A DNA stretch of 64,000 bases, taken from positions 1 through 64,000 of IMG/VR virus record IMGVR_UViG_3300006201_000010; one strand, 5' to 3'. Shown piece after piece: positions 41,552 to 43,732 of this stretch; position 1 is the stretch's first letter; the number at the start of each line of letters is the position of its first letter. The notes under the pieces are model-generated. The model searched no databases and was not told the origin of the DNA. It worked only from the letters and a program-made list of their open reading frames with translations. Source of the stretch: a virus (Duplodnaviria; Caudoviricetes). Position numbers and translations under genes: made by a program.

Positions 41552-42271
41552 TTACTCCGTAAATAAACTAAGTTGTCCGCCTGCTTGGATATTGTTAAGT
41601 CTATCGGTTGCTACCTTGTGCCACCTTTCCGAGATTTCAAAGCCCAGATAGTGCCTTTTTAGATTTCGGCTTGCGACAGCTGTCGTTCCGCTACCGATAA
41701 AAGGGTCGAATACCAAATCGCCTTCGCTACTGCTGTTTAATATAAAGTTTTGAATGATATGTACTGGTTTTATCGTGCTATGGTCGAACTTCTTCTTATC
41801 ATTCACATTCATTGTCGTAACATAGAATGTTTTTTTGCTTTCCGAATTACCAAACAACGGTACACCCTTTTCGCGGAAGAAAAGGCAGTATTCCGTATCA
41901 TTCATATACTTGTTATTGCAAGTCGGGCAGACGTTTGTTTTGTGCCAAGTGATTAAATTCCAGTTACATTTCCGCTTGCCCACAAAGTACTGCAGTAGTG
42001 CTGGAATTTGGCTTTTGCTGCACCAAATATACAGATTTATTCGTTTTAAGACCCTTACAAACTCGTCGAGTATTTCCGCCTTAAAGCCGTCAGATATTTC
42101 AACGTATTGCTCATAGTGTAGATTTTTCTTTTCGCCGAACTTGCCTGCGCTATGATTTACGCTTTGTTCATACGGCGGATCTGTTACTATGAGGTCGACG
42201 CTTTTATCTGGTAAATCCTTTATTGCGAGATAACTGTCAACGCATTGTATTGTGTCAATATCGAATTTCAA
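41552..42271 (-). CDS. DNA methyltransferase, N4-C/N6-A (beta class); paralogue of 58684-59506
   Basis: TDPPY, HSTIKP, DPFIGSGT; C-terminal QLSLF; probable TTG start overlapping the upstream TGA. Confidence 0.88.
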   Translation of the reverse strand: MKFDIDTIQCVDSYLAIKDLPDKSVDLIVTDPPYEQSVNHSAGKFGEKKNLHYEQYVEISDGFKAEILDEFVRVLKRINLYIWCSKSQIPALLQYFVGKRKCNWNLITWHKTNVCPTCNNKYMNDTEYCLFFREKGVPLFGNSESKKTFYVTTMNVNDKKKFDHSTIKPVHIIQNFILNSSSEGDLVFDPFIGSGTTAVASRNLKRHYLGFEISERWHKVATDRLNNIQAGGQLSLFTE

Positions 42272-43732
42272 GCTGCTTCCTCTGCAAATTCTTTTAAGCC
42301 TTCCATAACATAGAGAATGTTCGGCAAAGCCATTCCGTTGCCCCACATTTTGTATTCGGGGGAATCATTGTGTTTAATATCTTTCGCCCACCAGTCAGGC
42401 ATCCCTTGTAGTCGCGCGCATTCTGTTGGCGTAAGGCGGCGGACAATAAGATTTACTATCTTCGCTTTTTCTAAATCTTCCTTGCAAATACAAACCGCGT
42501 GGCGGTCAGTAGTATTGAGTGTGTAACTCATACCCTCAATTACGCCTTTCCCGTTACAGCCAGATTTGTCTGTGCGGTCTATGCCATTTCCTTGCAGGCA
42601 ATAAACGATTACACAGGGTATATGGTCCGAATCACACTTAATGGCGCGTAGCGTTAAACTCTTATCACCAGTTATGGTTTGGTTGTACATATCTGCACCC
42701 ACAACTAACATTGCCCGCGCCGCACCTGTGGCACATAATGTGAAACAGGGGTCGCCGTTCTTGGGGTTGCTTGCGTTTGTTTTGCTTGTAATAGTTTCTT
42801 CGTTGTAAACGAGCACACAAGGCAAGTTATTTCCGCCAGTGCCAGCCATTCCGAGAATTGTGGGTGAGATTTCGCCGTATTCCCTTGCACCGTCCCTACG
42901 CGGAAAGTCATAGCAACAAACCACTGCGGTATAATCTGTGATGCGGTTTTCGTGGTCACCCGTTAAGGTTGGTGCAACAGTCCCATTTCCATTGCCTCTT
43001 GCGTCGAAACATTGCCCTGAATTATGAGCGCAACTTTCAGAAGTGTCGGCAGTTCCTTTCCACGTTTGGCTGACCGCTTTAAAACTCCGCGACAAGCCGT
43101 TTCGCTCAAATAATATTTTGTCGGCACGTTCTCCTCTAAAATCTGCGACAAGGTAGATTCTTCTACGACGTTGGGGTACTCCCCAAAATTGAGCGTCGAG
43201 CGTTCGCCACGCGACGGAATACCCTCGACCCAGTATGTACCCTGCTCCGTTCCAGCAAGAAGATTTGCCCCCCCCCCCGCAAAGGTCGAGGAATAGCGGC
43301 TGAACTGTCTTTAACTTTGACGATTTCTTCAAGGACTGTTCGGAAGTCTTCACCTTGGTTTGAACTGTATGCGCCGGGGACGTTTTCCCAAACGACGAAT
43401 CGAGGAAACTCATTTGCTGTTGCATTTCGCATCTCCTTAATAATTCTTATGGCTTCCATAAAAAGCCCTGACCGCTCACCATCTAACCCTTCACGCTTAC
43501 CTGCTATTGAAAGGTCTTGACAGGGTGAGCCAAAAGTTATAATGTCAACAGGTTCTATTTCTGCACCGTTAATCTTTGTAATATCACCAAGCTGTTTAAC
43601 CTTGGGGAATCTCTTTGCTGTTACTTCGAGTGGAAATTTTTCTATTTCTGAACTCCATACTGGCTGAATTCCACAAAGCTCTGCCGCGAAACAACACGTT
43701 CCTGCGCCGTCAAATAAACTACCCATTCTCAT
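42268..43732 (-). pseudogene. C5-cytosine methyltransferase alpha chain, frameshifted at G11 (43268-43278); probably phase-variable
   Basis: N-half SLFDGAG, FGSPCQDLS, ENVPG; C-half LDAQFWGVPQRRRR, RRLTPTECARLQG, GNG; G10 gives 487 aa. Confidence 0.85.
42963..43425 (-). pseudogene. Nested out-of-frame beta chain of an EcoHK31I-type C5 methyltransferase, frameshifted at the same G11
   Basis: MQQQMSFLD...LFLDLC plus ...STLSQILEENVPTKYYLSETACRGVLKRSAKRGK; G10 joins them into 153 aa. Confidence 0.7.

Follow-up and report, generated by a model that had tools for sequence, protein, structure and literature searches.

The 64,000-nucleotide stretch of DNA analyzed here (the window) is part of an 85,792-base virus record of IMG/VR (IMGVR_UViG_3300006201_000010; Caudoviricetes), and it carries on its minus strand a gene for a C5 cytosine DNA methyltransferase, referred to as alpha, with a second reading frame, beta, lying entirely inside it. 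Both frames run through a single tract of 11 G residues (G11), and the length of this tract sets which parts of the two frames are contiguous. We propose that the methyltransferase is encoded by two overlapping genes, that changes in the poly-G tract reset both of them together into three product states, that beta is a subunit of the methylase, and that the phage population thereby hedges its DNA modification; we estimate the probability of this combined reading at roughly 70%.

A G tract shared by two overlapping reading frames

The features of the locus are listed below, with lengths in amino acids (aa) and open reading frames abbreviated as ORFs.

43268-43278, minus strand: G11 homopolymer, the putative hypermutable switch; encodes a Gly loop in both overlapping frames and corresponds to position 47 of the beta profile
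43279-43732, minus strand: N-terminal part of alpha (alpha-N); ATG at 43732; motifs I (LFDGAGT), IV (GSPCQD), and VI (ENVPG); PF00145 match with E 1.1e-30
43163-43267, minus strand: out-of-frame tail and stop of the 189-aa alpha-N product of the G11 allele
42268-43267, minus strand: C-terminal part of alpha (alpha-C); motif VIII (QRRRR), variable target-recognition region, motif IX (RRLTPTECARLQGMPDWW), and motif X (GNGMALP); PF00145 match with E 2.6e-16
43433-43438, minus strand: AAGGAG Shine-Dalgarno sequence, 7 nucleotides upstream of the beta ATG, formed by Lys-Glu codons of alpha
43279-43425, minus strand: N-terminal part of beta (beta-N), in the +1 frame relative to alpha; ATG at 43425; beta profile positions 4-46, E 6e-14
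42963-43267, minus strand: C-terminal part of beta (beta-C); stop at 42963-42965; conserved ...STLSQILE..VP.KYYLS..AC.G.L.R..RGK.LP..L..AL domain
42268-43425, minus strand: 385-aa chimeric ORF of the G11 allele, made of 52 aa of beta-N and 333 aa of alpha-C

With 11 G residues, alpha runs from its ATG at 43732 to a stop at 43163 and ends after 189 aa. The internal ORF, starting at the ATG at 43425, extends to 42268 as a 385-aa chimera whose first 52 residues are read in the +1 frame of alpha and which, past the tract, passes into the C-terminal frame of alpha itself, where motifs VIII, IX, and X lie. Only G7, G10, or G13 puts alpha-C in frame with alpha-N and makes beta-C continuous with beta-N; alleles simulated with these lengths gave an alpha of 486, 487, or 488 aa and an internal ORF of 152, 153, or 154 aa, respectively. 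Simulated G9 and G12 alleles gave a fusion of alpha-N with beta-C of 255 and 256 aa. Apart from the tract, both halves of alpha and both halves of beta are intact in the window, with no second lesion in either frame.

The assignment of alpha to the C5 cytosine DNA methyltransferases follows from the PF00145 matches in both of its halves and from motifs I, IV, VI, VIII, IX, and X, which occur in the canonical order. Motif IX of alpha, RRLTPTECARLQGMPDWW, is invariant across the family, and beta shows only a loose YLSxxAC resemblance to this motif. The beta ORF lies wholly within alpha on the same strand in another frame, as the layout of the M.EcoHK31I type requires.

An earlier note on this DNA had described the G11 tract as being crossed by the alpha frame and by the internal ORF starting at 43425, and this proved exact. 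Its statement that G11 truncates alpha and joins beta-N to alpha-C in a 385-aa ORF was reproduced, with alpha ending at 189 aa. For a G10 allele it had given an alpha of 487 aa and a beta of 153 aa, both of which are correct, but it had placed the end of beta at RGK; beta does contain LSQILEENVPTKYYLS...RGK, and its real end is ...GLLHQP.

The beta frame is a conserved gene under selection

The beta frame is a real gene under selection. In a first set of relatives from IMG/VR, the beta-frame peptide of the window matched the +1 frame at 80 of 80 loci, with 46-87% identity and E values from 1e-14 to 2e-54; alpha-C of the same loci was only about 30% identical. The +1 frame was open for at least 105 codons at the same place in 78 of 79 loci, and the +2 frame was mostly open for only 7-62 codons. 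In most loci the +1-frame ATG was conserved, four codons past the upstream stop. A second set of relatives gave a similar picture, with a complete beta in 73 of 75 loci, always in the +1 frame relative to alpha.

To quantify synonymous constraint, third positions were compared across 24 non-redundant alpha genes, using same-amino-acid pairs only. Fourfold-site identity in alpha was 0.34 upstream of the beta overlap, 0.61 inside it, and 0.30 downstream, and it peaked at 0.93 at the beta C-terminus, where the amino-acid identity of alpha is only 0.27. Selection also extends to the signals for beta initiation. The Arg codon that forms GAGG, the counterpart in relatives of the AAGGAG in the window, was AGG in 22 of the 24 genes, compared with 62 of 449 (14%) Arg codons elsewhere, and the Asn or Asp codon that forms the beta ATG ended in AT in all 24.

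A search with the beta profile, whose underlying alignment did not contain the beta-N of the window, matched 4,899 cluster representatives among 1.84 billion proteins. No family for beta was found in Pfam or NCBIfam, PHROGs gave just one weak match (phrog_16143, "DNA methyltransferase"), and a profile search of solved structures returned only antibody light-chain noise. Stand-alone beta ORFs in the databases are named only "hypothetical protein", and our literature search turned up no report of an ORF nested within a phage C5 methylase gene. The window itself contains all the characteristics of this hidden +1-frame family, namely an ORF of the approximately 130-aa type across motifs VI-VIII, its own Shine-Dalgarno sequence and ATG, a match to the profile, and synonymous constraint.

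Several further observations concern the same part of the gene. The most conserved nucleotides of the gene lie at 43122-43201 in the window, comprising motif VIII and beta-C, and this segment alone was also covered in runs X11 and X14 by short contigs from other organisms, at much greater depths of 34-235. In one relative (L011:2579-3205), a natural 209-aa ORF leads from alpha-N, with motifs I-VI, straight into beta-C without a G tract, apparently through a deletion of motifs VII-VIII. Proteins in which a single frame leads from beta into the target-recognition region and motifs IX-X (P0121, P0135, P0131) were considered as evidence of a natural split architecture, which was rejected as the norm, since these parts lie in different frames in 76 of 76 IMG/VR relatives of P0121. 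Two other proteins (P0154 and P0169) have a beta-like N-terminus, a target-recognition region, and motifs IX and X, followed directly by motif I sequence, an order that could reflect either circular permutation or a tandem arrangement of methylases.

Tract length varies among near-identical genomes

Tract lengths were read from assembled contigs of the sequencing runs and, for the closest protein matches, were deduced from protein sequences. A contig of run X14, from an independent study, had one G fewer (G10) and only one other difference from the window in 2.7 kb. Runs X4 and X5, which are possibly the source sample, gave G11 in contigs at 20-30x depth. A database protein of 487 aa (P0002), 99% identical, represents the in-frame allele. 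In the window's own 90%-identity protein cluster, the in-frame state was represented by products of 487 and 486 aa, the chimera by 385 and 384 aa, and the alpha stub by 189 and 186 aa; these lengths correspond to G10, G7, G11, and G8 alleles.

The broken states were also present in public assemblies, which carry chimeras of the 385-aa type (P0393 and P0399) and of 384 aa (P0392), as well as the 189-aa alpha-N product (P0402). Sister lineages showed the same pairing of lengths, with 499/500 versus 396/397 aa in one and 497/498 versus 395/396 aa in another, and the in-frame and chimera states each occurred on many contigs. Fusions of alpha-N with beta-C were likewise found in nature, with 255 aa (...PSRGGANLL...) and 256 aa (...PSRGGGANLL...). 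Across near-identical genomes and 90%-identity clusters, tract lengths from G7 to G14 were found, and all three frame classes were represented. Among the 120 best homologues, 11 of 13 chimeras were joined at the Gly run.

Across relatives, the tract appears in a stepwise series, from no run through G4-5, G7, and G8 to G11, and the longest G run in the 75 loci of the second set was 4. Contig breaks were seen at the 43268 tract in run X11 and at another tract, at 35338, in runs X4 and X11, which is only a hint of heterogeneity. Based on these sequences, the tract at 43268-43278 is to be regarded as hypermutable. A long homopolymer in otherwise intact frames, together with length polymorphism in which in-frame (ON) and out-of-frame (OFF) alleles occur in near-identical genomes, is what would be expected of a simple-sequence-repeat contingency locus. 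The earlier note had interpreted the site as a contingency locus with dual coding, both chains being switched by a single tract, and had made this reading depend on conservation of the beta frame in homologues. Both points held, as the frame is open in nearly all relatives and under selection, and lengths of every frame class occur among near-identical genomes.

A second type of broken allele was observed in the window lineage near 42820-42850, represented by P0396 (299 aa) and P0391 (185 aa) and carried by many contigs (26 for P0391). In this allele alpha is in frame at the tract and ends with ...GMAGTR inside the target-recognition region, and the remainder forms a separate ORF of 185 aa.

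A predicted role for beta in the methylase

In the mechanism that we favor, the phage would build its C5 DNA methyltransferase from a pair of overlapping genes: alpha, which carries motifs I-X and has 487 aa in the in-frame state, and beta, a 153-aa protein in the +1 frame that lies entirely inside alpha and would be translated from its own ribosome-binding site and ATG. One-base slipped-strand changes in the shared Gly-loop stretch would reset both genes together. At G7, G10, or G13, alpha and beta would both be intact, and the methylase is predicted to be probably active. At G8, G11 (the state of this window), or G14, the predicted products are an alpha stub of 189 aa and, from the beta start, the beta-N/alpha-C chimera; no intact beta would be made, and the methylase would probably be inactive. 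At G9 or G12, the products would be a beta stub and a fusion of alpha-N with beta-C, 255-256 aa in length.

Structure modeling suggests how the two chains might fit together. Prediction of the complex of alpha and beta gave a score of 0.77, compared with 0.57 for the best control; of 80 solved complexes, 58 reached the mark used for this score, as did 2 of 110 mismatched pairs, counts that apply only roughly here because our own alignments were used. The model runs had at least 48% of contacts in common, and the predicted local distance difference test (pLDDT) score of the partner was at least 57. In the model, residues 38-46 of beta, a strand just before the tract, pair with residues 155-162 of alpha, a strand just after it, so that the paired segments flank the tract position. 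Residues 78-126 of beta touch motif VIII, the target-recognition region, and motif IX in the model, and the conserved C-terminal helices are predicted to pack on these elements. When beta was modeled alone with AlphaFold, the mean pLDDT was 61, with confident structure only at residues 90-130 (the C-terminal helices), and the 385-aa chimera gave a pLDDT of 33.

The C-terminal part of beta also resembles a segment of the single-chain enzyme Dcm of Escherichia coli. Residues 287-336 of Dcm, right after motif VIII, align weakly with beta-C (TLAQLL...KYILTP in Dcm and TLSQIL...KYYLS in beta); in Dcm the segment belongs to the main frame of one chain. The main frame of alpha is without a Dcm-type segment after motif VIII. 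Because of the complex model, this alignment, and the absence of the segment from the main frame of alpha, we infer that beta acts in trans as a piece of the small domain, where it would provide the stretch that single-chain enzymes have after motif VIII. Beta is thus, on the strength of the models, probably a subunit of the methylase that binds alpha.

Several points weigh against the proposed mechanism. The complex score exceeds that of the best control by exactly the required 0.20, and the model may have passed partly through memory of single-chain methylase folds. The likeness of beta-C to Dcm is weak, with an hhalign E value of 0.022 in one comparison and a probability of 2%. Alpha has a complete motif set and, judged by sequence, might be active without a partner. 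In principle, each lineage could have a fixed allele, with no reversible switching; reversible switching is favored because lengths one base apart occur within 90%-identity clusters.

Alternative explanations

Among the other explanations, the one that survives best, although we consider it unlikely, is that beta is real and toggled by the tract without being a methylase subunit. Alpha alone would then be the enzyme, and beta would have a separate job, such as setting the timing or level of methylation or acting on a host defense. This would fit with the presence of all ten motifs in alpha, IX and X included, with a beta that belongs to no known family and is confidently folded on its own only over its last 40 or so residues, and with a complex score that barely reaches the mark. 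However, beta was not found outside this methylase family, in which its position is constant, its C-terminal part resembles the in-frame Dcm segment that alpha is without, and the modeled interface takes in the target-recognition region as well as motifs VIII and IX. In addition, the nested chain is required for activity in M.EcoHK31I (PMC2836561).

Next comes the possibility, also improbable in our view, of a three-way switch that rewires proteins, in which each length class yields a different functional set of polypeptides and the "off" products have roles of their own. Such products would act, for example, as decoys that bind S-adenosylmethionine or DNA, or as a split enzyme with altered activity. 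All three frame classes are common in natural assemblies, and the chimera links through the Gly loop the same two strands that are paired in trans in the model.

We regard it as quite improbable that the G11 allele is not truly off and that slippage of RNA polymerase or of the ribosome yields some in-frame alpha and beta, with the tract tuning dosage. Long homopolymers can cause transcriptional slippage, but this is best documented on A/T runs, and the DNA alleles, which cover each length between 7 and 14, account for the variation with no need of recoding. Least probable is that the frameshift is a homopolymer error of assembly or sequencing, or a mark of a decaying pseudogene, with no switch at all: homopolymers are error-prone and some contigs do break at tracts, but the G11 state at 20-30x in two runs (possibly the source sample), the G10 state in an independent study, lengths that differ by up to 7 bases in many assemblies from different sources, the absence of lesions elsewhere in both frames, and the occurrence of seven tracts on the coding strand all argue against it.

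Comparison with known systems

The closest parallel by description is M.EcoHK31I (Lee et al. 1995, as described in PMC2836561), a C5 methyltransferase with alpha and beta chains in which beta is encoded entirely in another frame inside alpha. Its alpha is without motif IX, which beta is said to provide, and the two chains bind each other, an association for which the beta N-terminus is important. The gene-within-gene layout is shared with the window, and the role of the beta N-terminus in association has a counterpart in the modeled pairing of the beta N-terminal strand with alpha. The earlier note had drawn this parallel, and the position of beta inside alpha bears it out, but its description of the M.EcoHK31I beta chain as carrying motif IX does not carry over to the window: here alpha has retained a canonical motif IX, and what beta-C resembles is the part of single-chain enzymes located past motif VIII. 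No repeat tract is reported for M.EcoHK31I in that source.

Poly-G phase variation of bacterial methylases is well known, for example in a Type IIG enzyme of Campylobacter jejuni (PMC4889913). The phase-variable methyltransferases of bacteria, including poly-G Type IIG enzymes and Type III mod phasevarions, resemble the locus in having a tract within the coding sequence (poly-G here), in slipped-strand mispairing, and in the coexistence of ON and OFF alleles. In contrast to them, the gene described here is a phage-borne orphan C5 enzyme, and its tract is dual-coding, with a different pair of products for each length class and not a simple on/off switch. Campylobacter phages carry several hypermutable poly-G contingency tracts that create population diversity, and these lie in receptor-binding genes, whereas the tracts considered here lie in DNA-modification genes.

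A beta-like frame was also found in the dmt gene of phage P1 (AF234172.1), where a 163-codon open +1 frame (L083:2216-2707) ends in a beta-like domain (...LLSQVLEQTSIPQRYFLSSKACAGILRRGEKRRKSLPPLLQMAL...) and has no annotation in the record. As in the window, this ORF spans motifs VI-VIII. P1 and most relatives differ in having no G tract, and Dmt of P1 has a fused adenine-methylase domain.

Gene overlap and phase variation driven by repeats have each been described before, separately. The new point is a hypermutable tract within a dual-coding stretch of a phage gene, with three product states that are all seen in nature; our literature search found no earlier case of a hypermutable tract in a dual-coding stretch where slippage by one base alters two proteins at once, with three possible states.

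Other G tracts and genomic context

The window contains seven runs of at least 9 G, all of them poly-G on the minus (coding) strand, compared with approximately 0.2 expected from base composition by a rough estimate. DNA-modification genes hold four of the seven tracts, that is, three besides the tract at 43268. The six further tracts range in length from 9 to 11 G and, together with the two neighbors of the methylase gene, are as follows.

17-26, minus strand: G run
34593-34602, minus strand: G run, with two extra bases in run X11
35338-35347, minus strand: G run that splits a gene of the phosphoadenosine phosphosulfate (PAPS) reductase family
54320-54328, minus strand: G run near the end of an N6/N4 methyltransferase gene
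58457-58465, minus strand: G run in a single-stranded DNA-binding protein (SSB) ORF, upstream of the SSB domain
58851-58861, minus strand: G run that splits another N6/N4 methyltransferase gene
43729-44283, minus strand: ASCH-domain ORF, upstream neighbor; its stop overlaps the alpha ATG (ATGA); Pfam score of 21.0 bits, just below the curated cut-off of 21.2
41552-42271, minus strand: N6/N4 DNA methyltransferase, downstream neighbor, 239 aa; its TTG start, deduced from database members of 239 aa, overlaps the alpha stop

The methylase region is thus coded on the minus strand in the order ASCH-like ORF, C5 methyltransferase, and N6/N4 methyltransferase, with overlapping stops and starts of neighboring genes. 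The downstream N6/N4 methyltransferase gene (41552-42271) is without a G tract. DNA nearly identical to the window came mainly from mouse-gut metagenomes, in 12 studies; RNA runs contained only small portions of it.

A 904-base segment of the window (36305-37210) was missing in contigs of runs X5 and X11 and present in those of X4 and X14. The segment spans most of two small ORFs, one of them with a DnaJ-type zinc-finger motif, and adjoins an HNH endonuclease ORF (35716-36156), and it may be a mobile insertion.

Implications

Beta is conserved in thousands of phage methylase genes, dmt of P1 included, and yet it has remained unannotated. The natural G10, G11, and G12 alleles, which occur in otherwise near-identical phages, provide a genetic handle on the function of this hidden protein.

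At the level of the phage population, the locus suggests that gut phages change how their own DNA is modified, by means of several tract-bearing modification genes. Together with at least three other such genes, the switch described here would allow the population to hedge its modification pattern, which could help against hosts with classical or methylation-dependent restriction. Bet-hedging of phage DNA modification may thus bear on how phages cope with both kinds of restriction.

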